From Candidatus Babeliales bacterium (lineage in GTDB: Bacteria > Babelota > Babeliae > Babelales > JANWKD01), in the NCBI GenBank assembly GCA_963701665.1, contig OY969622.1, positions 608,001-672,000 of the forward strand: a stretch of 64,000 nucleotides of DNA, read 5' to 3'. Positions 37,146-51,515 of the stretch are shown here, one piece after another. The notes beneath the pieces are model-generated. The model was given only the letters and a program-made list of their open reading frames with translations, was not told the origin of the DNA and ran no database searches. The first letter of the stretch is position 1. Each line of letters opens with the position of its first letter. Made by a program: the position numbers and the translations under genes.

Positions 37146-37289
37146 ATCTACGCCTGCATGGGGAAAAACTTCGATGTTACATTTGGCTACGATCGGCTTT
37201 GCCAGCTTCTTTAAGGAAATGATGGCGTAGATTGCCCGTCGAAGCTCAATTTTGCTTCGAAGATATTCCATTGCAAGCGAAGACTGGGC
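37145..37289. repeat. Structured palindromic element directly 3' of the tRNA
   Basis: AATCTACGCC...GGCGTAGATT stem, then GCCCGTCGAAGC...GCGAAGACTGGGC; same layout as 51364-51515. Confidence 0.65.
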
Positions 37290-37312: not shown

Positions 37313-37579
37313 ATGTTTTACGTATATTTTCTTAAATCATTAAAAAACACTAACCAATCATATATCGGGTATACAACTGATATACATCAACGTTTAGAAG
37401 CACATAATGCTGGCAAATCACCCTATACAGCAAAGTATAAGCCCTGGGAATTGCTTTTCTATGTTGCTTTTAAAAATATGGAAGAAGCCAAAAACTTTGA
37501 ATTATATTTAAAAGCACCTTCAGGTAAAGCATTTATTAAAAAAAGGCTCATATTTTTACGAAAAGGTAAGTGGGTATGA
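37313..37579 (+). CDS. Small stand-alone GIY-YIG nuclease
   Basis: FYVYFLKS...YIGYT....RL..HN.G...YT....PW.L....E..LK. Confidence 0.92.
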   Translation: MFYVYFLKSLKNTNQSYIGYTTDIHQRLEAHNAGKSPYTAKYKPWELLFYVAFKNMEEAKNFELYLKAPSGKAFIKKRLIFLRKGKWV

Positions 37580-37846
37580 ATCAAGGTGTTTTAGAGATTC
37601 TATATCAACATCAATATCTAATGCAGGCCAATGAAGATGTTTGTTATGAAATAATTCTAAATTATATATTTGCTCTACTGTGGCCTTTAAAAACCATGGA
37701 AATTCCGAAAAAGGCATAAAGAATTCTTTTTCATTTACTAATAACCAAATCCCATGATTTGAAATAGTTTGAATTTCAGCTTTAGCTAAAATGTTTTTTC
37801 CAGGCTTTTTCAATTTCTTTGGCATGTGTTTCAACCACCTTGACAA
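37556..37846 (-). CDS. DUF2442 protein, putative antitoxin
   Basis: FPWF..AT..QI...LHWP.LDID; paired with DUF4160. Confidence 0.8.
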   Translation of the reverse strand: MSRWLKHMPKKLKKPGKNILAKAEIQTISNHGIWLLVNEKEFFMPFSEFPWFLKATVEQIYNLELFHNKHLHWPALDIDVDIESLKHLDSYPLTFS

Positions 37847-38018
37847 GTTCTCTTAATTGACGATCTGAAAAACCACTAAAATCAGCAAGAGCAACAACAG
37901 GTTCTATCCAGAATTTTGCTTCTCCTTCAGGCGATAAAACATGAATATGCATTCTCGATTCTTCGCGCGAGAAGAAAAAAAATCTATAATTTTTATATCT
38001 AAATACCGTTGGGCTCAT
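37782..38018 (-). CDS. DUF4160 protein, putative toxin
   Basis: PTVFR...YRFFFFSRE..RMHIHV....GEAKFW. Confidence 0.85.
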   Translation of the reverse strand: MSPTVFRYKNYRFFFFSREESRMHIHVLSPEGEAKFWIEPVVALADFSGFSDRQLRELVKVVETHAKEIEKAWKKHFS

Positions 38019-38200: not shown

Positions 38201-38277
38201 GCGCCCGTAGCTCAGATGGATAGAGCGACAGATTCCTAATCTGTAGGTCACCGGTTCAAATCCAGTCGGGCGCACCA
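38201..38277 (+). tRNA. tRNA-Arg(CCU), integration target
   Basis: Anticodon arm ACAGA-TT-CCT-AA-TCTGT; GGTTCAAATCC; encoded CCA. Confidence 0.95.
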
Positions 38278-39732
38278 GTTTCCAGTTTTTACCGTGTTCA
38301 TAATCTCATTGAACACGGGTTTCATCTCTACATCGAACTTTTCATCTTTGTATGAGCAGTTCAAAACTAAAAGGTCAATCAATCGTCGTTTTTGTTTGGT
38401 ATTTTGATTTTTAAACAGCCCAGCGGCTTTTTTGGAGAGTTCTAAGATAAGATTGGCATTTTCTAGGTAATGAGAATCAGCCCGTTGAGTAGCAAGCAAT
38501 TTTACCGTTAATTGTTCTTTTTCTTCGATCCATTCCTTGGTATGCTGCTGCCAAAATTCTTCACCAATCTTGTTATCAAGCTTGTCTAAATATGCTTGAT
38601 CAATGCGATTTTGCAGGACTTTAATATGTTTTTCCAATTGAAGCACTAAGTTATTATGATATTCTATCTTTTCTTTATGACTTTCGCGTAGCCCTTGCAA
38701 AATTTTTTCTTGAATTTCATCAGAAACTTGAATATCGTTCAAGAGGTCTTGAAAAGTATTTTCTATTAATTCTTGCCTTAGGTAATTTTGCTTGCAATTA
38801 CCCTTATACCCCGTGCAATGATAGTAAATATATTTTTCTTTCTGAATCTGTGCACTTAGAGAACAACTGCAAACTCCACATCGAATAAGATTAGAATAGG
38901 TAAAAAGGCCCTTTTTTGACTTGTTTTTATAAGGGTTTTTGAGAATTTTTTGTACTCTTTGGAACAAATCTTTACTTATTATTGGCGTATGTGAAGCACC
39001 TTCATATTTCTTACCTTTCCAGAAGAAGACACCGGTATAAAATTCATTTTTTAATATGATATCTAAAATGCTGGAATAGAAATTTTTTCCATTTCGATAG
39101 ATCATGCCATCAGCAATCATTTTTTTTCTAAGTGACTGTAATGAGTATGAACCTGTGGCATATAGCTCAAACATTGTTTTTACATATGGTGCTGTATTTG
39201 GGTCGAGTTTTATGATGCTTTTACCATTTTCTTTAACATTTATATATCCAAAGGGTGCCCATGATGGATATATACCCTGAGCAGCTTTTTCTGACATGCC
39301 TTTTTTAACTTCTTCGGAAAGATTATCTACATAGTTTTTGGCCATTAATGCTTTGATACCGAAAATAAATTTTTCATTAGAGCGTGAATCTTTACTAAGA
39401 ATTACATTTTCTTTGACAAGATGAACTTTGATATCAGAATATTCAATTACTCGATCAAGCAAAGCATAATCTGCTATATTTCTTAAGAGTCGATCAGTTT
39501 TTTCAACTAAGAAATGTTTAACATTTTTATTTTCTTCCAAGAAACTTAGCAGTTTATTGAATTGAGTTCGGCCTGCTTTTTTTGCTGTTTCGACATCAGT
39601 AAATTCTTCTACAATTCTAAAGTTATTTTTGGATGCATATTCTTTTAACAATTTGAGTTGCGCGGGGATGGAAAATCCTTCATTTTCTTGTTCTTTTGAG
39701 GAAACTCGGGCATAAATTATGGCTTTATTCAA
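38248..39732 (-). CDS. Large serine recombinase (integrase)
   Basis: YARVSS catalytic motif, DRL.RN, PFGY recombinase domain, C..C...YYHC Zn ribbon, coiled coil; stop codon lies inside the tRNA. Confidence 0.95.
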   Translation of the reverse strand: MNKAIIYARVSSKEQENEGFSIPAQLKLLKEYASKNNFRIVEEFTDVETAKKAGRTQFNKLLSFLEENKNVKHFLVEKTDRLLRNIADYALLDRVIEYSDIKVHLVKENVILSKDSRSNEKFIFGIKALMAKNYVDNLSEEVKKGMSEKAAQGIYPSWAPFGYINVKENGKSIIKLDPNTAPYVKTMFELYATGSYSLQSLRKKMIADGMIYRNGKNFYSSILDIILKNEFYTGVFFWKGKKYEGASHTPIISKDLFQRVQKILKNPYKNKSKKGLFTYSNLIRCGVCSCSLSAQIQKEKYIYYHCTGYKGNCKQNYLRQELIENTFQDLLNDIQVSDEIQEKILQGLRESHKEKIEYHNNLVLQLEKHIKVLQNRIDQAYLDKLDNKIGEEFWQQHTKEWIEEKEQLTVKLLATQRADSHYLENANLILELSKKAAGLFKNQNTKQKRRLIDLLVLNCSYKDEKFDVEMKPVFNEIMNTVKTGNWCARLDLNR

Positions 39733-40424
39733 ATGAGACCTAATATTTTAAAAATGTTGTTCCATTCATCTTTTGATGAGAAATTTTGAATATAAAAATT
39801 CTTTATGCGATCTATTTGCCAGTCTGTTTTATAATCTTCATTAGTATCAATAGCTACTAAAATAAAGTTACATTTAGGGAATTTAGCTGATAAAATGTTT
39901 CTCAATTTTATTATTTCATCCCTAGTTTGTGGGTTGAGATCTAAATTCCAAGGTCTTGTACCTGCGCTAAGTCTGAAAAAATATACCGTTTTTCCAGAAT
40001 TTAGTACGTTATAAAGTCGTTCGATTCTTCTATTATATTTTTCTGCTACATCTTCAATAAAGTCTAAATAATTTTCTTTTATGTACTCGACTCTACCTTC
40101 TGTTCGCTCTGCAGGAAAATCATGATGGAAAGCAATTGTATATTTTTTGTTAAGAATAAAAGTTTTTTCAAAGGTCAAATATTGTGGATTTAAAAAATCT
40201 GAAAAATCATCCTCAAATAAATCACATACACCATTAAAAGAACTACGAACCCAATCAAATGGAAAAGCAGTGCATCGAATATTATTGGTTCTGAGCATAT
40301 CTGCTGGCGTGCAACTAAATCCAAGACTTATAGTAATAGGATCGGGAAAGCTATCAAGGCTATTTTGTTCAAAGGCTATAGTTTTACAAACTATAAAAAA
40401 AATTAAAATTAAAGTCTTTTTCAT
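39729..40424 (-). CDS. DUF1796-family putative papain-like cysteine peptidase
   Basis: ISLG..C...PFDW, F.HDF, KY.RRI.R motifs. Confidence 0.8.
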   Translation of the reverse strand: MKKTLILIFFIVCKTIAFEQNSLDSFPDPITISLGFSCTPADMLRTNNIRCTAFPFDWVRSSFNGVCDLFEDDFSDFLNPQYLTFEKTFILNKKYTIAFHHDFPAERTEGRVEYIKENYLDFIEDVAEKYNRRIERLYNVLNSGKTVYFFRLSAGTRPWNLDLNPQTRDEIIKLRNILSAKFPKCNFILVAIDTNEDYKTDWQIDRIKNFYIQNFSSKDEWNNIFKILGLI

Positions 40425-40449
40425 TTTTCTTCTTTATTGTTTAAAAAAT

Positions 40450-40492
40450 ATAGTCCCTTATAAGAGAGATAGAAACTCTTATAAGGGACTAT
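40450..40492. promoter_or_regulatory. Long hairpin between the methyltransferase and DUF1796 genes
   Basis: ATAGTCCCTTATAAGAG...CTCTTATAAGGGACTAT, a 17-bp perfect stem. Confidence 0.6.
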
Positions 40493-40499
40493 TTTAAAT

Positions 40500-41333
40500 T
40501 TAGCTATTCTTTTCTGGAAAAATACCATTTAACGCTTGAAATATTTCTTGATTAAAAGACAACGTATTTGTTGATTGTTTGTTTCTAAAGCAAAACATTT
40601 TTGCATAAGCATCAGGAGTAAACTCTTTTTTTGATAAGACATCATCTTCTGCATTTAGACTTACAACTATATCATCAAAGTTATTTGGAGCAGCTCTAGG
40701 AGTTTCTGTTATAATTTCTCCATCCTGTCTACTTAATAAATATTTTTCGATAAATGGAATACTCGGCTCTTTTTCTGCGCGCTTATCGTTGAAGGGTGGT
40801 GTTTCGATAATAACCGTATCACCTAATTCAAAAATAACATCAGTAATTTCTTTCCAAGGACTCATATGGTGCAGGACATTTAATGCCAAGACAACATCAA
40901 AATGCTCATGTTTAGCTAATAATTGAAGATCTTCAAGAGAAAGAGCTCGTTTGAGGTAAATAAGATTTCGCACTTCTGTATTGAATTTGCAAATATTAGC
41001 TAATCTATCTGATAAATCGGCCATTACACAAGTTGCTTTAAAATCTTTTGCTAGCCTCAAGCTAAAGTAACCATTACTTGCACCAATATCAAGAATCTTT
41101 ATTGGTCTTTTATATTCAGCTAATGCCGCTTTTATTGCTTCATAACGTGAAGGACAGTCAGGACCAACTCCTTTAAAAATAACTTCATTATTTATCATAA
41201 TATCTTGATAAGGAAAATATCTTTCACATGAAAGTTTTTCTAGAATTTCTTCTTTGCTCATTACATCGCAAGCATATGAAGTACCGCTTGCTAGGATTAA
41301 AACCCCATAAATAAAAAATAATTTAGTTTTCAT
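40500..41333 (-). CDS. Class I SAM-dependent methyltransferase
   Basis: ILDIGASNGYFS motif I; FDVVLALNVLHH. Confidence 0.85.
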   Translation of the reverse strand: MKTKLFFIYGVLILASGTSYACDVMSKEEILEKLSCERYFPYQDIMINNEVIFKGVGPDCPSRYEAIKAALAEYKRPIKILDIGASNGYFSLRLAKDFKATCVMADLSDRLANICKFNTEVRNLIYLKRALSLEDLQLLAKHEHFDVVLALNVLHHMSPWKEITDVIFELGDTVIIETPPFNDKRAEKEPSIPFIEKYLLSRQDGEIITETPRAAPNNFDDIVVSLNAEDDVLSKKEFTPDAYAKMFCFRNKQSTNTLSFNQEIFQALNGIFPEKNS

Positions 41334-41334
41334 A

Positions 41335-42363
41335 TTAATTTTTCCCATGGTTACTATTGTGACTAAAATTGAAAGATTCATTTAACTTTTTAATTACAGA
41401 ATCAAAGTCCTTAACTACATTTCCCATTTTTACTTCTACAGGAAATCCATCCTCACCTTGCATAACTATATGGCTTTCACCATTTGGAAATACATGAAAA
41501 TATCGTCCAAAGGAATTTTGAAAAGGTTGCGATTCAATAGCAAATTCTGGATTTAGTAATTTTGTTTTTTGTACTATTTCGTTAAATTGGTTTGTAGTAA
41601 TTAACCAATCACCATTTAAAATATCATCTTTTCTTGGACCAACAGGACTAACCTGATATATTTTCCAGCGCATTTTTTTTGGCTCAATACCCGCTTCTAA
41701 CATAGTTTTACCAATATATGGTACAGAATCTATATTAGGAGCAGCGGCGACAGTTCTTACTGTAAGATTGGTTTTTTCAAAGTTTGTTTGTATAAACTTT
41801 ATTGCTTCTAACACCTTAGAAAAATGCAAAATCGTTCCAATACGCATAATCGCATTTATTTCTACGGTATGCCCATCCAAGGGTAATCCTACATCATTTA
41901 TAAATGGTAATATCGATGCACCTCTTTTAATCATGAGTAGGCCGTTGCTTGATAAGGTAGTGCGTAATCCTAATTCCGTTTTAGTATAACGTGCTAATTC
42001 AGGAAGTTCCTTTTTTAATAAAGTTTCTCCTCCCGTAAATACAACGTTTTTTGTGCCTAATCGCTTTAATTCATATGCTAAGTTTTTCCATTCATTTAAA
42101 GTTACGTCTTCTTTTGCATTATGAACAGGCCCCCAACACCATTTACAATTTAGATTACAAACACCGTTAATGTTCATATCAACTGTTTCAGGAGCACGGT
42201 AATACATTGAACTTAAAGTTGTTAACTTTTTTTGTTGCATTAAAGGGAAAATTGTAGATAAAAGTTGTGTTGATTTTTTAGTTTTTAACACATTTGAACA
42301 AACTTCTTGTCCCTTACATGCAAAACAAAATAGCAATAGTATAGAAAGTCTATGTAGATGCAT
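41335..42363 (-). CDS. Radical SAM enzyme, viperin-like
   Basis: CNLNCKWC, FTGGE, SNG; C-terminal RWKIYQ...LIT..QF...YF.V.PNG segment resembles viperins. Radical SAM call is firm, the subfamily is tentative. Confidence 0.8.
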   Translation of the reverse strand: MHLHRLSILLLFCFACKGQEVCSNVLKTKKSTQLLSTIFPLMQQKKLTTLSSMYYRAPETVDMNINGVCNLNCKWCWGPVHNAKEDVTLNEWKNLAYELKRLGTKNVVFTGGETLLKKELPELARYTKTELGLRTTLSSNGLLMIKRGASILPFINDVGLPLDGHTVEINAIMRIGTILHFSKVLEAIKFIQTNFEKTNLTVRTVAAAPNIDSVPYIGKTMLEAGIEPKKMRWKIYQVSPVGPRKDDILNGDWLITTNQFNEIVQKTKLLNPEFAIESQPFQNSFGRYFHVFPNGESHIVMQGEDGFPVEVKMGNVVKDFDSVIKKLNESFNFSHNSNHGKN

Positions 42364-42786
42364 TTATTGTTTTCTTTCGAGATACAAAACATTTTCAAAA
42401 TAGTTTTTGAGAATGTTCTTGTGAGGATTAAATAGTTCTTCTGGTAAATTCGTGAGAGAAAAAAACTTCCACTCATAACAAAGGTCGGGCTCCATATTTT
42501 TGATTTCACCCAAAAATTTTTCAAGCAAAAAAGATATATGAATATAATGACCACGCTCATCAATACAATCCGCTACACTAATTAATCTAAACTCCAAGCC
42601 TTCAATATCTATTTCTTCTTTTAATTCTCTTCTAACGCACTCTCTTATTGATTCGCCTTGTTCTAAATGACCACCTGGCAACCCCCACATTCCTTCGCCG
42701 TAACAATTCTTTCTTTTTCCTAATAAAATGGCATCATTTTTTATTAAAAAAATCTCACATCCAACTTTAATATTTTTGTTGCTCAT
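42364..42786 (-). CDS. Nudix hydrolase (MutT/NUDT15-like)
   Basis: Nudix box GGHLEQGESIRECVRRELKEE; NMEPD.C.EW.FF. Confidence 0.92.
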   Translation of the reverse strand: MSNKNIKVGCEIFLIKNDAILLGKRKNCYGEGMWGLPGGHLEQGESIRECVRRELKEEIDIEGLEFRLISVADCIDERGHYIHISFLLEKFLGEIKNMEPDLCYEWKFFSLTNLPEELFNPHKNILKNYFENVLYLERKQ

Positions 42787-42943
42787 GACTTACCTTTATA
42801 TATATTTCTAAATTTTTTCTCTAAGAATCATACGTTAAAACGCTTAAAAGGTAAAGGCTGCTAGTCGGTTTAATGGTTTGACTTTTTCTCAGATAATGAC
42901 ACTCTTAATTTTAAAATTAACCTTTTAGGAGAAATGATTACAC

Positions 42944-43120
42944 ATGAAAAATACTGAATCTAAAAAATCAAAAACTACAATTTACATGTCTGAAGAAGAT
43001 GAGACACTTCTTGATGAAGTCTTTATAAAGCGCATTAGAGATCGCAAAAAAACAGATCGATCAACACTTCTTTGCGAAGGCATTAGACTTCTGTATAAAA
43101 AAGAAATAGACCCAAACTAA
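42944..43120 (+). CDS. Small ribbon-helix-helix-like regulator (not in the ORF track)
   Basis: My translation: MKNTESKKSKTTIYMSEEDETLLDEVFIKRIRDRKKTDRSTLLCEGIRLLYKKEIDPN; AGGAG upstream. Confidence 0.6.
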   Translation: MKNTESKKSKTTIYMSEEDETLLDEVFIKRIRDRKKTDRSTLLCEGIRLLYKKEIDPN

Positions 43121-43162
43121 AATTTCTCCATAAAAAGCTAACTCTTGTTTAAGAGATATTTA

Positions 43163-43657
43163 ATGAATTTTATATATGCGCCTGGTCGTTCATCTTATTT
43201 TAAAGATGGATCTTTAAAGACAAAAAAAAGAGAGTCTTGTCTCTTTTGCGAAAAGATTGCACAAGAAAATGACCGTGAAAATTTAATTTTAAAACGGACT
43301 AAAAATTCGGTTATTATGTTGAATTTATATCCATATAATGCGGGTCATATTTTGGTATTGCCTTATATGCATACTGCTGAATTATCAATTTTATCACAAG
43401 AAGATCGTTCTCAGTTAATGGATGATATTAATCATTCTGTTTTGAAACTAGAAGCAGTTCTTTCTTGTGAAGGCATTAATATAGGGATTAATAAAGGCAA
43501 GGTATCAGGTGGAAGTGTCGCTGATCATTTACATGTTCATGTTGTTCCTCGTTATAGTAACGATACAAATTTTATGATGGTTTGTGATGCTACTAAAGTT
43601 GTAGGAATGTCACCATTGCATATGTATGATATTTTAAAAAAACATTTCGATGAATGA
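43163..43657 (+). CDS. HIT-family hydrolase (Ap4A hydrolase/phosphorylase-like)
   Basis: CLFC, NLYPYNAGHILV.P..H, HLHVHVVPR histidine triad. Confidence 0.92.
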   Translation: MNFIYAPGRSSYFKDGSLKTKKRESCLFCEKIAQENDRENLILKRTKNSVIMLNLYPYNAGHILVLPYMHTAELSILSQEDRSQLMDDINHSVLKLEAVLSCEGINIGINKGKVSGGSVADHLHVHVVPRYSNDTNFMMVCDATKVVGMSPLHMYDILKKHFDE

Positions 43658-43757
43658 TATTAATCATAGGTTGTAATGCTTAATTGTTTGGCTTATTTAC
43701 TTCCATGCCTAAAATTTATCTATTTTAGAAAAGATAACATTTGATTAATTCAAATAG

Positions 43758-44945
43758 TTAGTTTTTATCTGATTGAGCAAAATCACAATATTCACAAATT
43801 CGATTAGTAATTTGATCTTTTGATATTATGGGCGGCTTTGATTGATTTAAACAACTTCTCATATTTTTAATTGTATTTTGAACCCATGAATCATCTATCT
43901 CATAACTTGATATTGATACATAGCACTTTAAATTTTTATCAAATGGCATAAATGAGTATTGGTTTTCTCCTACATTTATATAAAAGAAATAAGCTTTTGT
44001 AGAAACTGCGTATCCATTTTTTTTAAATAACCATGTATAATATGCAACCTGACGTCTATAATTTTCATACCAAGCATCACTTGTTATGCATATATTTACT
44101 CCTTTTGCAGTTGTTTTATATTCAACAATTATTAGTTCATTTTGATTATTTATCCAAACATCATCAACACTACCAAACAAATCAAAATTTGTTTGGTAAT
44201 CATAAAATCTGATTCCTCCATCATAGACATCAATATTATTTTTTTTTCGTTTAGTAGTTTGCCATTTCTTTATAGAATTATACTTATCATTATATGGAAC
44301 CGCATCAATTCCATGATTAGCCATAAATTGAGGATGAGCCTTCCATTTTCGAAAAAAATTCATTTCATTTTTTACTAATTCATCAATTTTTGTAGTTATT
44401 TTAAAAGACTCAGGATCAATACCAGGTCGTTTTTTCCCTCGTTTCAATTCCCTATAAAAACATCTTTGACATTGCAAAAAAAGACTTATTTGCTTCCAAC
44501 TTATTTCTCGCAATCCATCCTGCAAAATAAGTTTCTCTCGCCATTTGAGTTTTGGTATGGCAATACCTGTCATTACAATATATGATTTCATTTTCAAATA
44601 AATAAAATGGTGGCTATTAATATCAATATTAAAACCAATCAGCTCACTAATTTCAATCCATTGATTTGAACTTCTGTGCAATAAAATTGTGCTTAAAATT
44701 TGCATTCCATTTTCATCAATACGTAAACCCTGAAAAATTGATAAGCCATTCTCCTCCAGAAAAGGTCTTGTTGCTATTATAATACATCGAAAGTCTTCAA
44801 TTATACTTTTATAATTACGTAAACCTAATTGCATTTTGATACGAGCTTTAAATAAAGCCGTAGTTAATTCATCAATATTATCAGATTGATAATAAGCGGA
44901 AAATTCGCCTTGCAGGTCTTCAATATGAGATTCAAGATAGACCAT
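43758..44945 (-). CDS. ERF-like domain fused to a PD-(D/E)XK nuclease
   Basis: N-terminal S..IDEL..AL...RPFL..NGL...Q...L.TILLH...QW; C-terminal CQRC, GSVDD, VEYKT, RQ..YY, CEYC. Confidence 0.7.
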   Translation of the reverse strand: MVYLESHIEDLQGEFSAYYQSDNIDELTTALFKARIKMQLGLRNYKSIIEDFRCIIIATRPFLEENGLSIFQGLRIDENGMQILSTILLHRSSNQWIEISELIGFNIDINSHHFIYLKMKSYIVMTGIAIPKLKWREKLILQDGLREISWKQISLFLQCQRCFYRELKRGKKRPGIDPESFKITTKIDELVKNEMNFFRKWKAHPQFMANHGIDAVPYNDKYNSIKKWQTTKRKKNNIDVYDGGIRFYDYQTNFDLFGSVDDVWINNQNELIIVEYKTTAKGVNICITSDAWYENYRRQVAYYTWLFKKNGYAVSTKAYFFYINVGENQYSFMPFDKNLKCYVSISSYEIDDSWVQNTIKNMRSCLNQSKPPIISKDQITNRICEYCDFAQSDKN

Positions 44946-44948
44946 AAT

Positions 44949-45389
44949 CTATTTAACAACTAAGCCAATAATAGAAATGTAAGATTGCATTCGTAAGAAT
45001 GTTAAATATTTTATGGGATCTTTTTCTTCCCATTCTGAATCACCAAATAATTCGTATGCCGAAACCCATTGTCCAGATTTATGCAGAAGTATTGTTCGTA
45101 GTATTTTATGTCCTACATCATCTCTTTGAATTAATTGCGTAACCGCAAGACCATTTTTGACTAATGCAAATCTAGAAGCTTTTATTACGTCCCCAAAATC
45201 CTCCAAAATATCAGGAAAACAATTTTTTAAAATAGGTGTACCTATTTCTGCTTGAGCAATTGATAATGCGCTCCCCAGTTCATTTAATTCAGCAGAACAA
45301 TGAATATCATTTGAAAAATTTTTATTAAATATTTCATTAGAAAATTCATTATGTTCAAATCCAATAGCATCAATCAATATATCATTCAT
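44949..45389 (-). CDS. ERF-family ssDNA-annealing-like protein
   Basis: S.ELNEL..AL..AQ.E, SR.AL.KNGLAVTQ, LRTILLHKSGQW. Confidence 0.75.
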   Translation of the reverse strand: MNDILIDAIGFEHNEFSNEIFNKNFSNDIHCSAELNELGSALSIAQAEIGTPILKNCFPDILEDFGDVIKASRFALVKNGLAVTQLIQRDDVGHKILRTILLHKSGQWVSAYELFGDSEWEEKDPIKYLTFLRMQSYISIIGLVVK

Positions 45390-45582
45390 GTATAAAACCC
45401 CTAAAAAGAAATAATAATTTTTATTATTTTACACAGATAGAAAATATATGCAAATTTATCAATTAAATTAAGGGTTTTTTTATATTTATATATATACAAC
45501 AAGATATGTAAATGCTTTTTCAGAATGATTTGTGTAATATTAAAAATATTATTATCTATATATTTCGATAAAGGAGAAAGTT

Positions 45583-46233
45583 TTGACTCATTGGGGTTGG
45601 TACTGGAGGATAAAGCAAAAACACATAGCAAGGGCTCTATGCTCTAAATTACCCACGATTGATTCATTTAAGTTGGCGCAGCATATTAAGGCTATGGTTG
45701 GATTTACCGTGCAACCTTTAGGGGTTAAAGCTATAATTCAAGACAATATTTTGAAGGTTATCTATAGAAAGCGCAAAGATTGTTCTTATATTATCCTTAT
45801 CGATAAGCAGCCCTGCAACTACGGCGGATTCCGTTACTTCTTCAGATGTCCCTTATGCCAGAGACGAATGCGGATACTCTATTTTGCAGAGCAAAGTATT
45901 TTTCTTTGCCGTAAATGCTTAAACCTAAGCTATGAAACCCAACATTTAAGGCCAACTAAGCGCTATGACTATATGAGTAAAAAAGTTAAAGATGGTATAA
46001 AAGACAAACAAGGCGATCTAGAACTTTCCAAAAAACCACCTCGAATGCATGAAGATAAATATCAAAAACTTAAAGATAAGCAATTTTATTACGAATGCAA
46101 ATCAAATCAGGCGTTTAACAACGAACTAAGAGAATGGTATGGTGCAAAAATTGAGCCTTATATCGATTGCTATTTTGATTATGTGGATGAAAGTAAGGGT
46201 TGGCAGAAAAATTACCGTGCATTGAATAAATAG
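45583..46233 (+). CDS. Zn-finger hypothetical protein
   Basis: GG.R.FF.CP.C.RR...LY...F.CR.C..L.Y..Q, KPPRMH; start uncertain. Confidence 0.65.
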   Translation: MTHWGWYWRIKQKHIARALCSKLPTIDSFKLAQHIKAMVGFTVQPLGVKAIIQDNILKVIYRKRKDCSYIILIDKQPCNYGGFRYFFRCPLCQRRMRILYFAEQSIFLCRKCLNLSYETQHLRPTKRYDYMSKKVKDGIKDKQGDLELSKKPPRMHEDKYQKLKDKQFYYECKSNQAFNNELREWYGAKIEPYIDCYFDYVDESKGWQKNYRALNK

Positions 46234-46260
46234 TTTTTTTGTCATGATTGCTCTTTCATT

Positions 46261-47487
46261 TTATATCGTTATTTCAATGATCTTTCTCATCAATCTTAAG
46301 CCTTGTTGTAGTTCACCAGTTTGAGCTCGAGGTGAATTTAGGCCTACATTGATTTCTTGCTCAAGTTTATCATAAGCATATCGCGTAATTGTTCGTTCGC
46401 TAATGTAATGCAGTATCCAATTAACCAGCTCCTGATCTTCTTGATTCCATAAAAGTTTTATTAAGTTTAAGTCACGTTGCATTTGAGTTGATAACTTTTC
46501 TATAATCCAAGATCTAACATCAAAGCCTTGCTGTATAGCTTCTCCAATGTCTTTACCAATTGTAGTCGGATAACTTTGTGCATGAGAGTAAAGTGCTTTC
46601 CATTTATCGAACATAATGCTTCCAGCACTGTCGTTATCATGGCAAATCAGTAAAACAGTTTTATGTTTGGCAAGATAATCAGTTGTAGGATCTGGATTTT
46701 TTGTACAACCACCAATAGCTATAATAACGGCGAAATCACCTACTGCATGATGCAATGCATATGCGTCTAATTCAGACTCAACAACGATCATGATAGGGTT
46801 CTTCTTATTGCCAATTATATTAAGGCCTTTCATGCTTCCCGATATTGCAATATATTTAGGCCATTCATCATCTATTTTCCAATTCTTCCGTCGGATCTTT
46901 AATCTTATGACATTTTCATTTTTTTCTATGGCAGGTATAAGTATTCCTGCTGGAAACCAGATTGTTTCTTTGTCTAATCCCCAAGCAGCTCCTTCAAAAT
47001 TTTTGTCCTCTGAAAGCCAACTTATTTTATAATTTTTAATTGCCTCAATGGGCAGGCCTCGCTTATCTAGAATTTGCAAAATATCTTTTTGTAATAGCAC
47101 GCAATCATGCGCTTCTTGAACAAGTTTGTTTGCTTGTTGAATCCAAAGAATAGATGGTTTATCAAGGAGCATAACGGAATTTTTACTTTTTGTGTTTGCA
47201 AAAATAGTTGGCATTTTATCAGCAAGTTTTGCTTCAACATATTTTTCAGCTTCTTTGAAGTTGGTAAAACCAAGATAATCTAAACAAAATTGAATAGAAT
47301 CACCGCGAGCATTACATTGTCGACAAAAATAATAACCTGTACAATTTTTCATTTGTTTGTTGGGTTGTATAACAAATCTATCTGATCCGCCACACACTGG
47401 ACATGGTGAATGATATTCACCGCCCTGGGTATTAGCTGCTCGTTTGGCAATAAGCCCTTTTTCGTGAACAAGATCTAGGAGATCCAT
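46261..47487 (-). CDS. Primase-like protein (Zn ribbon + Toprim)
   Basis: PCPVCGGSDRF...CRQC...GD; VVESELDA; DND.AG; KD. Confidence 0.85.
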   Translation of the reverse strand: MDLLDLVHEKGLIAKRAANTQGGEYHSPCPVCGGSDRFVIQPNKQMKNCTGYYFCRQCNARGDSIQFCLDYLGFTNFKEAEKYVEAKLADKMPTIFANTKSKNSVMLLDKPSILWIQQANKLVQEAHDCVLLQKDILQILDKRGLPIEAIKNYKISWLSEDKNFEGAAWGLDKETIWFPAGILIPAIEKNENVIRLKIRRKNWKIDDEWPKYIAISGSMKGLNIIGNKKNPIMIVVESELDAYALHHAVGDFAVIIAIGGCTKNPDPTTDYLAKHKTVLLICHDNDSAGSIMFDKWKALYSHAQSYPTTIGKDIGEAIQQGFDVRSWIIEKLSTQMQRDLNLIKLLWNQEDQELVNWILHYISERTITRYAYDKLEQEINVGLNSPRAQTGELQQGLRLMRKIIEITI

Positions 47488-47652
47488 TTTTCATTCCTTT
47501 ATTTGATCATTGTGATAATAATCACGTGGTATTGGTGGATTTCGTGGCTTTGATTTATATCTTTCATAAAAAACAACAATAAATATTCAGACAAGTTTTT
47601 AGGAACAAACAAAAACAAATCCACCATATCAACCAATACCACGGTTTTAATA

Positions 47653-49461
47653 TCAAATCTTTCTAATGCGCCACAAAGATGTCCCTTGATGTATGCCATT
47701 TTGTTCTAAGCGTAAGCCGCCCTCTATACGATTTTTGTAGAGCGCTAATTTTTTTGCCAAACTCCGTTGATTAATGGCGCCATTCTTATCGCCAGCTAGC
47801 TCAAGTAGTGATTCTTGAAAAGTTTCTTTTATTTCATCATTATCATCATCATCGATAGCATTATTAACTTGTATAGAATTCATATTCTTAAGTTCTTTTA
47901 ACTTAATAGATCGATCGCCAAAAATTTTATACCAAGTCATGAACAATGAATTTAACATGATTCTTATAGGGTCATTATTCTGTATATCTTTTCGAGTTTC
48001 ATATGGATCGGCCATGCCGAGCCAAACAATTGCAGATCGAATCCAACGGTTCCATTCTTCAAATCTTCCAAATTGCTCAATATTCTGGACTGGACTTCCG
48101 GCAACATGATAAGCACGAAGAATAATTAAACCCGCCAGAACAAGTTTATTACGATTTTCAGGAATATATTTTCGTAGGTCTATTGCAAAAGATCGTTCTT
48201 CAGGATGTTCAACTTGAGGATCAAGTTTGCATAATAATGCTCTTGTGGAAATATCGCCCATAAAAATTAGATTGTTTCCCGTTACAAGAAAAGTTGCAGT
48301 GGTGAGTACTGTTCTTGTTTCATTTCCTCCCAAGAGACGATCTTTGTATTCTTGTTGAGTTAAAATAGAACATAAAGCAGCGCTCTTGAACGGTTTTTCT
48401 ACGTTGTCATAACAAACAATAGGATCGCCCTCAATTAAAACTGCCATGATACGTTTTTTTTCTTCAGTTTCGTTTTCTGCTTGAGCAATTACACTATTGG
48501 GTTTTCCTGTAGCAATAAGTGAAACAACATCCGCCAAAAGACTTTTTCCGCTGGCCATTTTAGGCGCTGTAAAACCGAATAATGGTGCCGTTGTAATAGA
48601 TCTTCTAACAAGAGCGGTAAGAATTGCAGCAAGTGTAACTGATTTACTTGCGGCATTTTCGAAAGGAAACTCTTCTAAGATTTTCAGCAGTTCATCTTTA
48701 GCTCTTTGAGCATCTTCCAATGTAGGCTCTGTTGGAATTTTACCAAATGTATAATTACCCGGAAAAAACAAAAGGCCTGAAGCATCATCATAACCAGGTT
48801 CATCTAAAATGGAGCAATCTGCACGCAGTGTAGGAGCATTAATGATTCCTGTTAGCACGGGTATATTCCATTGTTGTTTTGCAAGCAAATATTTAGAAAT
48901 TCTTTCTGGGCAATCAATTTTTTTAAACTTTCCTGTACGAGTATCAAAATTTAAAAAATTTCCACGTTTAGTCAGATGTACTGTTAAAAACGCTTGGTCA
49001 ATTTCTTTAATAATTACGGCATCATGTGATCTTTTTATCAGTATTCTTTTATTGATTGGAGAGTGTAAAATTTTTGCGATATGAACCAATTTTCCAGATC
49101 TTTGATAGATATGATCTTCCCGCGATAGGAGCAATTTTTCTGCATCTTCTACAACTTCTGGCAACTTTGAGGGCTCAAGATATATTGTACTTTGAAATGA
49201 ATGTTTTTTTGTTTGATATGTTTTATAAGATTCTTGTAAACTAAGAACTTGTGATGCTTCGGCCTGACCTAAATCTTCAATTGATAATACGAATAAATTT
49301 TCCCATGATGTATCGCCATAACCAAACTCTGCTTTTTTTGTATTAAGATCATTCTCTTCATTTATTAATTCATCGTATTCGGAATTACGAATCTCTTGGT
49401 AAAATGATGTTACGCTGTTAGTTTTTTGCTCTTTTTTGATATTTTTGCTATCATTACTCAT
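47653..49461 (-). CDS. P-loop ATPase, putative replicative helicase of the element
   Basis: Walker A A....SGKS, Walker B-like VCYDN, TGNN; adjacent to the primase. Confidence 0.7.
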   Translation of the reverse strand: MSNDSKNIKKEQKTNSVTSFYQEIRNSEYDELINEENDLNTKKAEFGYGDTSWENLFVLSIEDLGQAEASQVLSLQESYKTYQTKKHSFQSTIYLEPSKLPEVVEDAEKLLLSREDHIYQRSGKLVHIAKILHSPINKRILIKRSHDAVIIKEIDQAFLTVHLTKRGNFLNFDTRTGKFKKIDCPERISKYLLAKQQWNIPVLTGIINAPTLRADCSILDEPGYDDASGLLFFPGNYTFGKIPTEPTLEDAQRAKDELLKILEEFPFENAASKSVTLAAILTALVRRSITTAPLFGFTAPKMASGKSLLADVVSLIATGKPNSVIAQAENETEEKKRIMAVLIEGDPIVCYDNVEKPFKSAALCSILTQQEYKDRLLGGNETRTVLTTATFLVTGNNLIFMGDISTRALLCKLDPQVEHPEERSFAIDLRKYIPENRNKLVLAGLIILRAYHVAGSPVQNIEQFGRFEEWNRWIRSAIVWLGMADPYETRKDIQNNDPIRIMLNSLFMTWYKIFGDRSIKLKELKNMNSIQVNNAIDDDDNDEIKETFQESLLELAGDKNGAINQRSLAKKLALYKNRIEGGLRLEQNGIHQGTSLWRIRKI

Positions 49462-49480
49462 ATGAAATCCTTAAATTTAT

Positions 49481-49513
49481 AAGCCATCAATCAGCATTGA
49501 TGGCTTTGCTTTT
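49481..49513. terminator. Hairpin between the SpoVG-like and helicase genes
   Basis: AAGCCATCAAT-cagc-ATTGATGGCTT. Confidence 0.55.
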
Positions 49514-49514
49514 T

Positions 49515-49781
49515 TTACTGATGTGTCACTTCTTCAAGTTTTACTATGATTGCCTCTTCTATATGTTTTGCTATTGATTTATTAATGGGATGAAAGATAT
49601 TGAGATTTCCGCTTGAACTTTTGCGTGTTGGGTATGTTATTCTGTATCCTCCGGCGGGCCGAGTATAAATTCCTATGCCTCCTAGATAAAAACTGTTATC
49701 AAAAACAATACTTGCAAATCCAACAAGGCCATCTATAGGTTTAATAGGAGTTATCTGAATTTCGCTGATTTTGTTTTTCAT
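49515..49781 (-). CDS. SpoVG-family nucleic-acid-binding protein
   Basis: ISEIQI.....L.GFASIVFDN.F....I.I........YP.RK.......FHPIN......IEEAI. Confidence 0.75.
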   Translation of the reverse strand: MKNKISEIQITPIKPIDGLVGFASIVFDNSFYLGGIGIYTRPAGGYRITYPTRKSSSGNLNIFHPINKSIAKHIEEAIIVKLEEVTHQ

Positions 49782-49932
49782 TCGTATACCCTTTCGATAC
49801 GTTTTCATTTTGGTCCCATTCCATAAGCAATGAAAAAAAATCAACAACTGGCTTATACTCGTCGATTAGCCAAGGTTGAGTTTCTTTTTGGGATGCATAA
49901 ATGTGCGTGATAATATTTTTTTTCTTTTTCAT
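49741..49932 (-). CDS. Small hypothetical protein
   Basis: 63-aa ORF with an upstream AAGGGG, co-oriented with the replication genes. Confidence 0.4.
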   Translation of the reverse strand: MKKKKNIITHIYASQKETQPWLIDEYKPVVDFFSLLMEWDQNENVSKGYTNEKQNQRNSDNSY

Positions 49933-50048
49933 ACCCCTTACTATTGCAAAAAGTGTGGTATGAGAAGCGCTGAGCGTACGCCCGGCGTAAGTATTGAGAA
50001 GATTGTTAGCAAGAGGGGATATGCTACAGACTTTGTTCTTATAGAGGT

Positions 50049-51218
50049 TTATTTATAGAAATATTCAGAATTCCAAAGTATATATGCGACGTGCGGCTGA
50101 TGTTTTTTAGCTTTTTTATTGGTCAACAGATTTTCTATTTCGTTTATTTCTTCTTTTACTTTTTTATTTATTCTATCACGAGCCTTATAAATTTTATCTT
50201 TGTTGGATTTTGCTGTTTTTGATTTATCGATCATTGAATCAGGAATTCCGTTGATGATTTCATCGAGTGGTATAGGGTCTCGGCAGGGTTTTCCTCCTGG
50301 TGTCATTTGGAAAAGTAAGGCACCTTCAATACTCGCCGGATCAAAAATGATTTTTTGTCCATTAATTATCATTTCTCCTGTTTCGCCATCATAATCGATA
50401 TCTAATTTGTCGAAGATATTTTTTTTTGCAGTTAAAAGATTTTTTCTAATATAGCCATAGGTTTTTTGAATTGCATTTTGGTATAAAAACACATCGAAAT
50501 TATTCTCATAAAGCTTATTGTCTTTTCCTGGGGTTATAGAGTTATCTAATGCATTGGATCTAATTTCAAGAACATAAGCATTATGGGCTTGTTTTGCTTT
50601 GATGAGTTCATTTTTTTGGTTCTCATAAATTTCTGGGTTATATATGAGATTAAAGCCAAAGATAAGTTGGAAGCTACTCCAGATACGTATTGGTCCAATT
50701 CGATTGAGATACTCTAAATTTTTTATAAAGTCATTATAATGTGAAAAAAACTTTGTTTTAGTGATTTGATTTTTATTATCTAAAATTACTAATTGCGCTA
50801 CAAATGACAGGTGCTTATTGCTTGAATCATTTAGTAGTGCTGATATGAAACGTTTTATTGCACAATATTTCTGCAAAATAGATGCTGCATCAAGTCCCAT
50901 CTCATGTTGAAGCCATGTTATATCTGAGGTAAGCGCATTTTGATCAGACATGTTATTGTTTTTTATATAAGCTGATATTTTCTCGCTAGCTTCATTAATT
51001 CCATTAATGGCCATTTTGGCGAGGTTATAATATGGTTCATGATCGGCATTGCATTGATCGCGAACAGATTTTAATATTGGGTCTAGGGAAGGTTCATTTA
51101 ATACTGTTTCAGCATATTCGGCTATAATGGGCGCAAGGGAAATAATGTTATTAGCTTTTATGGCATGTTCACACAAAAGTGAAAGATCATCGAGTAACAG
51201 TTGTTCTTGAGAGTTCAT
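50049..51218 (-). CDS. Hypothetical protein, possible C-terminal winged-helix domain
   Basis: 389-aa ORF; C-terminal layout loosely resembles OmpR-type DNA-binding domains. Confidence 0.6.
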   Translation of the reverse strand: MNSQEQLLLDDLSLLCEHAIKANNIISLAPIIAEYAETVLNEPSLDPILKSVRDQCNADHEPYYNLAKMAINGINEASEKISAYIKNNNMSDQNALTSDITWLQHEMGLDAASILQKYCAIKRFISALLNDSSNKHLSFVAQLVILDNKNQITKTKFFSHYNDFIKNLEYLNRIGPIRIWSSFQLIFGFNLIYNPEIYENQKNELIKAKQAHNAYVLEIRSNALDNSITPGKDNKLYENNFDVFLYQNAIQKTYGYIRKNLLTAKKNIFDKLDIDYDGETGEMIINGQKIIFDPASIEGALLFQMTPGGKPCRDPIPLDEIINGIPDSMIDKSKTAKSNKDKIYKARDRINKKVKEEINEIENLLTNKKAKKHQPHVAYILWNSEYFYK

Positions 51219-51363
51219 GTTTATTACCTTTTCATTACTTTTTTACATAAGTAGTTATTCCTTATTATTATACATTTGTCTTAGGCAAAAAGCAGTTGTT
51301 GTATATCCAATAACCTGATATTTTCGAACGTGAAAGTTATAAAATAATCCAATAGCGTGCACC

Positions 51364-51515
51364 AGTCTTCGCTTATCCACGCCTTCCGGCTTGGCAAGCT
51401 ACGCCTGGCTTCGCCATCTTTTTAAATGATTTTTTTTTGTAAACAAACGAAGACTGTCCGGCATAGCTTCTATAACGCAGAAGTTGATATTCTCAAAGTA
51501 AAAGCGACGACGGAC
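51364..51515. repeat. Structured palindromic element displaced from the tRNA by the island
   Basis: AGTCTTCG...CGAAGACT stem, then GTCCGGCATAGC...GCGACGACGGAC; parallels 37145-37289. Confidence 0.65.

Follow-up and report, generated by a model that had tools for sequence, protein, structure and literature searches.

Does the reaction that inserts a mobile element also rewrite the enzyme that catalyzes it? This question is raised by an island in a Candidatus Babeliales bacterium (GenBank assembly GCA_963701665.1), located in a window of 64,000 nucleotides (contig OY969622.1, positions 608,001 to 672,000, forward strand) whose own numbering is used here for the island and its surroundings. A reverse-strand frame at 39732-38248 encodes a 494-aa large serine recombinase, the integrase of the island, which runs through the core of an attachment (att) site into the antisense strand of a host tRNA gene and ends W-C-A-R-L-D-L-N-R. 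The insertion target is tRNA-Arg(CCT) at 38201-38277 on the forward strand (ARAGORN), and the codon for W486 is the complement of its CCA; residues 488 to 494 and the stop codon (38248-38271, reverse strand) come from antisense tRNA sequence. The tRNA end recurs at 51346-51366, giving a 21-nt repeat that has four mismatches between its copies and an exact 8-nt core (attL core, 38272-38279; attR core, 51359-51366; both forward strand), and 51364-51281 on the reverse strand reads as a detached, open tail of 27 codons that ends L-F-A. When the ends are joined, a 512-aa circle form results at every one of the 26 crossover positions tried (38257 to 38282), and 25 residues of the circle form are replaced by 7 in the integrated form. 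A preliminary description of this DNA had claimed both the read-through frame and the in-frame tail, and both were confirmed. Judged by the design of the sequence, this C-terminal swap is nearly certain; because the recombination site lies within the last codons of the integrase gene, the inserted copy is left without the conserved 25-residue tail.

The layout and both element borders are clear. The element measures 13,087 bp and has a GC content of 32% (versus 37%); nowhere else in the 1.34-Mb genome does the 21-nt pattern of its two ends occur. From 51365 onward, the DNA is a displaced host repeat (51365-51414, forward strand) of the kind normally found directly behind the CCA of the transfer-messenger RNA (tmRNA) gene and several other tRNA genes of this genome. 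In a genome of the same genus (G001), the site is empty: ~1.75 kb separates the tRNA from the downstream genes, and no element gene lies in that interval. Since the host repeat resumes after 51364 and an empty site exists, the right border is independently fixed. No circle junction of this element was seen in contigs from 4 of 11 runs, which were thin and give no evidence either way. The integrase has catalytic, recombinase, and zinc-ribbon domains (PF00239, E = 2e-26; PF07508; PF13408), with Ser10 annotated as catalytic, and an inserted coiled coil was recognized by models and fold matches. S11/S12, D80, R81, and R84 of the catalytic region, the residues expected of a large serine recombinase, were invariant across 55 aligned sequences, as were zinc-ribbon residues C285, C288, C306, and C313.

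Is the detached tail a real protein end? Among the 119 best homologues besides the query (best 120 of 5754 matches), 50 stop no more than 5 residues past the Trp, 49 read through a tRNA T-loop, 10 carry a long tail, 8 have no anchor, and 2 end otherwise. Five of the natural long tails are 27 residues long and identical to the predicted tail at 14 to 16 of 27 positions. When all 32,882 Trp-starts in the genome were scored against natural tails over positions 7 to 24, the predicted tail came out on top (28.8; next best, 11.0). Open-frame length was dropped as evidence, being too common by chance: a run of 21 more open codons turns up in 19% of shuffles and in 33% of element frames. The strong evidence for the tail is homology, not openness. 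A contig of 10,337 bp (L273) with a 127-nt terminal repeat carries a full integrase with a long tail and the same replication genes, without a tRNA; it is a circle or a collapsed tandem. Tandem junctions also give integrases a long tail (L209/L327, frameshifted; L322, a remnant), and both long and tRNA-type ends occur among sister sequences on viral contigs. A pattern scan of metagenomes gave 14 matches (1 full integrase with tail, 3 integrase-end fragments or att arrays, and the rest short or chance), while none of the 6 loci from a viral pattern scan had a full integrase joined to the tail. Comparison of the C-termini of homologous recombinases therefore yielded natural ends of both kinds and, with the circular contig and the sister viral sequences, bears out the earlier proposal that one gene encodes two forms. 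The companion proposal, that the integrated end is a functional alternative isoform, was not supported: integrated ends are unconstrained, ranging from 3 to >30 residues, and the 50 early stops above belong to this form. Because the integrated end is not a designed isoform, integration amounts to tail loss.

Signs of selection on the tail were sought mainly in 25 end pairs curated by hand, from which ~12 extra tandem copies, doubtful matches, and late finds were left out. Curated tails are 12 to 45 residues long, and 18 of the 25 stop 16 to 26 codons past the att arm, compared with a mean of 4.2 and a maximum of 12 in shuffles (n = 5000). Third codon positions are the least conserved beyond the att arm. 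The raw ratio of nonsynonymous to synonymous polymorphism (pN/pS) was 0.44, 0.54, and 0.70 in three small groups (3, 10, and 6 pairs), against 0.96 in a post-stop control; it was 0.59 in 18 profile-found tails, a value biased by the way in which they were found. These substitution patterns show that codons past the att arm (11 to 27 in this tail) are under protein-level constraint. Codons 1 to 10 also form the attP arm, with a zinc-domain-type motif at 51336-51343, and here the preliminary description needs correcting: the evidence does not support the four mismatches preserving W-C-x-x-L-D for the sake of the protein, since those codons are att arm and serve mostly DNA recognition. The D-x-F-R-T of the tail is likewise predicted to be largely a translated binding site.

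The two ends are identical over tRNA nucleotides 71 to 76 in 24 of the 25 pairs; the shared core begins exactly at the CCA end in 14 pairs and stops exactly at nucleotide 71 in 9. The T-arm of the tRNA serves as the B arm of the att site, and its T-loop motif is found again in the element arm with a shift of 5 bp (4.8/8 matches at this shift and ≤3.0 at all others; 25 pairs). Such a shift is a hallmark of serine integrase attP versus attB sites, and by sequence the sites here are short, as expected. The zinc-domain motif was seen in only one arm of each att site, and with the center placed at nucleotides 71/72 the motifs sit at the positions reported for LI integrase (PMC3783163; papers cited by PMC or bioRxiv number are represented here by excerpts). 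A crossover at the CA of the CCA was considered (symmetry peak, 10.0 versus 10.3 at 71/72), but because core borders and motif spacing fit nucleotides 71/72, the crossover is likely at GC 38272-38273, with GC 51359-51360 its counterpart in attR. This probable site lies inside the core named in the preliminary description. A 9-bp hairpin (38292-38318, forward strand; z = −3.4) lies within the recombinase coding sequence, starting 14 nt past the tRNA CCA. In 31 of 80 relatives, versus 4 of 80 control windows, the tRNA strand likewise has a hairpin with z < −2 just before the Trp, and the embedded hairpin is likely a replacement terminator for the tRNA.

How widely is this layout shared? All 20 loci reached through longer matches in relatives end exactly on the tRNA CCA (19/20 by a stricter count, one being frameshifted). 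Across 80 GTDB loci from many phyla, two of which repeat earlier loci, 58 place the Trp on the CCA, 7 have the overlap in a different register, 4 end in tRNA-like sequence that was not called as a tRNA, and 11 lack any such end; targets in relatives include tRNAs for Asn, Glu, Arg, Gln, Asp, Ala, His, Met, and Ser. A search for far ends, with a motif set after natural tails had been seen, gave 16 matches among 472 element-side candidates (two look false) versus 1/417 and 0/387 in controls, and 10/616 versus 1/621 in further DNA; for many loci, no attR match was found within 20 to 60 kb. By these comparisons, the layout is family-wide and widespread across phyla. The host genome holds two more integrases of the clade (clade assignments are from a quick tree; coordinates are those of the host genome). 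One, at 356933-358405, lies at tRNA-Arg(TCT) and has no far end within 60 kb; the other, at 227337-228779, lies at tRNA-Glu in an element of ~4.3 kb with a 35-residue detached tail. Only distant relatives (<32% identity) were found among GenBank phages and plasmids. Two viral integrases, L138 and L139, are identical over 480 residues with ends in tRNA-Leu(TAG) and, for L139, tmRNA, which suggests one enzyme with two targets.

Variants of the layout were also encountered. Subclades L097, L100, L120, L127, L153, and L267 cross the tRNA end in other frames and have other tail motifs. In genome G263 (L319:11375-20000 and L320:1-3449), four segments of 2.5 to 3 kb stand behind a full element, each closed by a tail-coding att arm; each of the three that were read has a long open reading frame (ORF) with a shared middle and a variable end, followed by a small downstream ORF, in a toxin-immunity-like arrangement. 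By analogy, this resembles an integron-like array at a tRNA end, like toxin-immunity cassettes. Integrase-less islands of 1 to 7 kb run from a tRNA-Arg to a tail-coding arm at L321, L323, L324, L328-L330, L332, L336, and L338, and are possibly satellites moved in trans or decayed elements.

An integrase end that overlaps its att site is already in print for DsiB at ssrA (2011), for rumA integrative and conjugative elements (ICEs; 2016), and for Mx8. DsiB and Mx8 are closer analogies than the att sites in repressor genes named in the preliminary description. DsiB, of the Dehalococcoides ssrA islands, is a large serine integrase encoded on the reverse strand; the 3′ part of its gene covers attL and continues into the antisense strand of an RNA gene ending in CCA, and these islands also form tandems (PMC3146451). 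Here the target is tRNA-Arg(CCT) rather than ssrA (one viral relative, L139, does end in tmRNA); a Pfam scan of the main element ORFs found no DsiA/ParB/Mom module with a second, small serine recombinase, and the element as a whole gave a single recombinase match. According to the excerpts of that paper, the end of DsiB is divergent; they mention neither a conserved tail in the circle nor a degron-like end or an embedded terminator. Serine integrases of rumA ICEs in Streptococcus also have the att site within the integrase gene, and a functional difference was proposed for their C-termini, which change in length and sequence; they belong to conjugative elements that alter a protein gene, whereas here the tRNA is restored (Ambroset et al.; PMC4701971). 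In Mx8, attP lies in the gene of the IntP/IntX integrase and integration swaps the C-terminus and changes activity, but this is a tyrosine recombinase in which 112 residues are replaced by 13, as shown in the laboratory, compared with a serine recombinase and 25 residues replaced by 7, read from sequence alone, here (PMC4701971, PMC6070905, PMC4383910). The canonical large serine integrases—LI/A118, SPbeta, phiC31, and Bxb1—share the domain order, the fold, and a zinc-domain motif 5 bp nearer the center in attB than in attP, but have one isoform and a separate directionality factor, whereas in the present element the gene spans attP and a clear motif occurs in tRNA-side arms only (PMC3783163, PMC11722253, bioRxiv 2025.05.02.651858). 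Tycheposons and phage-inducible chromosomal island (PICI)-like elements are also tRNA-inserted islands with an integrase, a primase/helicase module, and cargo, but 910 of 937 use tyrosine integrases (bioRxiv 2020.12.28.424599). SCCmec CcrB was rejected (NF047343 of NCBIfam, 96 bits versus a cut-off of 900), as was an archaeal suicidal integrase, a gene split on integration into two inactive halves (PMC8371274): here integration leaves 487 of the 512 residues, with all domains, in one piece. The element is thus a large serine integrase island outside the DsiB, CcrB, Mx8, BPs, and suicidal-integrase groups. A 2015 database paper stated that serine integrases were not known to target tRNA 3′ ends (PMC4383910), contrary to what this clade does; later literature was covered in part. 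Among the papers listed by our literature searches, none dealt with tRNA-targeting serine integrases that have a conserved tail specific to the circle, with selection on such a tail or its Ala-rich end, or with an embedded hairpin. The layout is real, well supported by sequence, and partly anticipated in print.

What, then, does the tail do? Directionality of serine integrases is normally set by a second protein, often an unidentified one, and such factors are poorly conserved. Here the tail itself likely helps set whether the integrase inserts or excises. Our tentative reading, to which we give somewhat less than an even chance, is that the tail packs on the zinc-ribbon/coiled-coil region and favors integration, the short form being the probable excising enzyme. 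The inserted copy would make a 494-residue enzyme without the conserved tail and the excised circle a 512-residue enzyme with it. The tail would fold back on the zinc-ribbon/coiled-coil region, docking where directionality factors act in other serine integrases and changing direction, and excision would fall to the tail-less form, either unaided or helped by a small protein such as the SpoVG-like one or the 63-aa one described below; this copy would still be able to excise. In a naive recipient only the long form is present, and from an integrated copy only the short one is made; unless enzyme comes from another copy, the long form must therefore integrate and the short form excise. In the title of a 2021 paper by Abe et al., the extreme C-terminus of SprA is reportedly given a switch role. 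In structural models, the full fold is seen in both a natural long form and the short form of this element. Alignment with solved integrases (Bxb1, SPbeta, phiC31, and LI) extends only to residue ~476 to 491 of the long-form model, so the short form keeps the whole known fold and is likely a complete enzyme, with the tail an add-on beside the last zinc-domain helix, modeled as two low-confidence helices. A modeled complex of the tail with the zinc-ribbon/coiled-coil fragment scored 0.48 (best of three controls, 0.00), which offers weak support; runs agreed in at least 83% of contacts, with a partner predicted local distance difference test (pLDDT) score of at least 67. In SPbeta, the directionality-factor helix packs between the zinc-ribbon domain and the coiled-coil hinge (PMC11722253).

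Several observations weigh against a docking tail. Its pLDDT in the full-length model is ~50. Among 157 solved pairs, 116 reach the mark that the modeled complex passed, as do 2 of 215 mismatched pairs; of those that do, only 18 solved pairs and both mismatched ones lie at ≤0.60. Unless the prior is good, a pass at 0.48 is of a kind that is wrong more often than it is right. In several Glu-targeting elements the tail is just 13 to 18 residues long, which an essential switch would not easily explain; the tails are only slightly amphipathic (mean z, 0.37; 25/41 positive); tails persist at the integrase-less small islands; and Ala-rich tail ends point to a different role. Conserved small genes could also supply an ordinary directionality factor. 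The preliminary description saw no obvious gene of that kind, and profile scans of the element proteins recognized no known factor, but a SpoVG-like gene and a 63-aa ORF (49515-49932, reverse strand) are conserved among related elements and are putative candidates; an atlas search gave no usable match to the 63-aa ORF. The broadest form of the docking idea, a cross-phylum clade of tRNA-targeting serine integrases that needs no separate directionality factor since the tailed form only integrates and the tail-less form excises, a self-editing one-gene switch, strikes us as improbable on present sequences.

The Ala-rich ends raise the rival that the tail is mainly a C-terminal degradation tag: a short-lived circle integrase would delay reinsertion while the circle replicates, and insertion would remove the tag. 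We consider this unlikely, if with an appreciable chance of being right; it can hold together with a docking tail. The last residue is Ala in 9/25 curated, 6/10 natural long, 10/13 viral long, and 6/22 profile-found tails, versus 7.7% of 784 host ORFs and 3/98 integrated forms; all four Ala codons are used, and Ala ends occur in at least four clades of the quick tree, but the rows are kin, so binomial P values for the excess overstate it. The L-F-A of this tail resembles the A-F-A of the host tmRNA tag, and among 20 tags called in relatives, 18 have Ala as the last residue. In phage BPs, both a free-form repressor and an integrase are tagged, and integration removes a C-terminal extension of the free form, as here, although in BPs the repressor gene holds attP and the tag has been tested as a degron, whereas here attP lies in the integrase gene (PMC3694055). 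For all the Ala-rich ends, a degron read by ClpXP, the textbook route, is unlikely in this host, because neither ClpP nor ClpX was found over cut-off in this 93.6% complete genome; weak, partial ClpP-family matches occur in only 6 of 41 Babeliales genomes. ClpP is present in each of five distant hosts that were checked, where three of the tails end Ala-Ala. Lon clears ssrA tags where ClpXP is lacking (PMC8138137), and the host has two Lon genes and one Tsp gene. Also against a tag, most Glu- and Asp-targeting elements have other ends, sometimes short ones at Glu, and constraint spans the whole tail, not its end alone. As an observation in its own right, no full ClpP was found in the searched Babeliales genomes (this one and 40 relatives), and tmRNA is present; a Mycoplasma-like clearing of tagged proteins in Babeliales is possible by analogy.

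An improbable rival is damping of the Mx8 kind, in which full activity requires the tail, the island is stabilized because its integrated form of the enzyme has little or no activity, and excision depends on long form from an incoming circle or a tandem neighbor. Shortened Mx8 integrase is reported to be less active (PMC4701971, PMC6070905), and McMurdie et al. proposed in 2011 that DsiB may work fully only from a circle or tandem (PMC3146451). The tandem junctions and unconstrained integrated ends described above fit such a scheme, but according to the models the short form keeps every element of solved, active serine integrases. There is least to be said for the tail being a by-product, the overlap merely keeping integrase and att site linked and the tail having no regulatory role. 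DNA recognition does explain codons 1 to 10, openness is common, and short tails occur; length clustering, the codon-position pattern, and pN/pS < 1 beyond the att arm all argue the other way, as does a tail profile that matches 57 of 261 genomes of the phylum. A gene product edited by its own reaction offers a direct two-construct test of a built-in switch such as the docking tail. Most database sequences of this clade (99 of the 119 best homologues) come from integrated copies and are truncated, so an engineering effort that draws its integrases from genomes may try them out without the native tail.

The remainder of the element consists of cargo and replication genes. Cargo (39729-45389) comprises DUF1796, methyltransferase, radical SAM, NUDIX, HIT, PD-(D/E)XK/Erf-like, and Erf-like genes, with a 58-aa ORF at 42944-43120 that we read as ribbon-helix-helix (RHH)-like. 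The methyltransferase, radical SAM, NUDIX, and HIT genes form a putative nucleotide-modifying cluster at 40500-43657; the radical SAM gene has weak viperin-like scores, and viperin or other defense labels for the cargo were rejected as below cut-off. A replication module (46261-49461, reverse strand) of a primase (46261-47487) and a 602-aa putative helicase-like NTPase (47653-49461) is common to 12 to 13 of 27 related element stretches, and a 389-aa ORF without an assigned function (50049-51218, reverse strand) has homologues in five element stretches, including this one. No capsid, terminase, or excisionase was recognized in the element, and a search near attR for a promoter created by circle formation gave nothing above chance. 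Outside the element, a GIY-YIG gene and a DUF4160/DUF2442 pair at 37313-38018, between two tRNA-Arg genes, form a small separate insert. Two short repeat families stand behind the CCA of ~20 of 37 tRNA/tmRNA genes, for example at 37146-37260 and 51365-51430, and also occur elsewhere in the genome.

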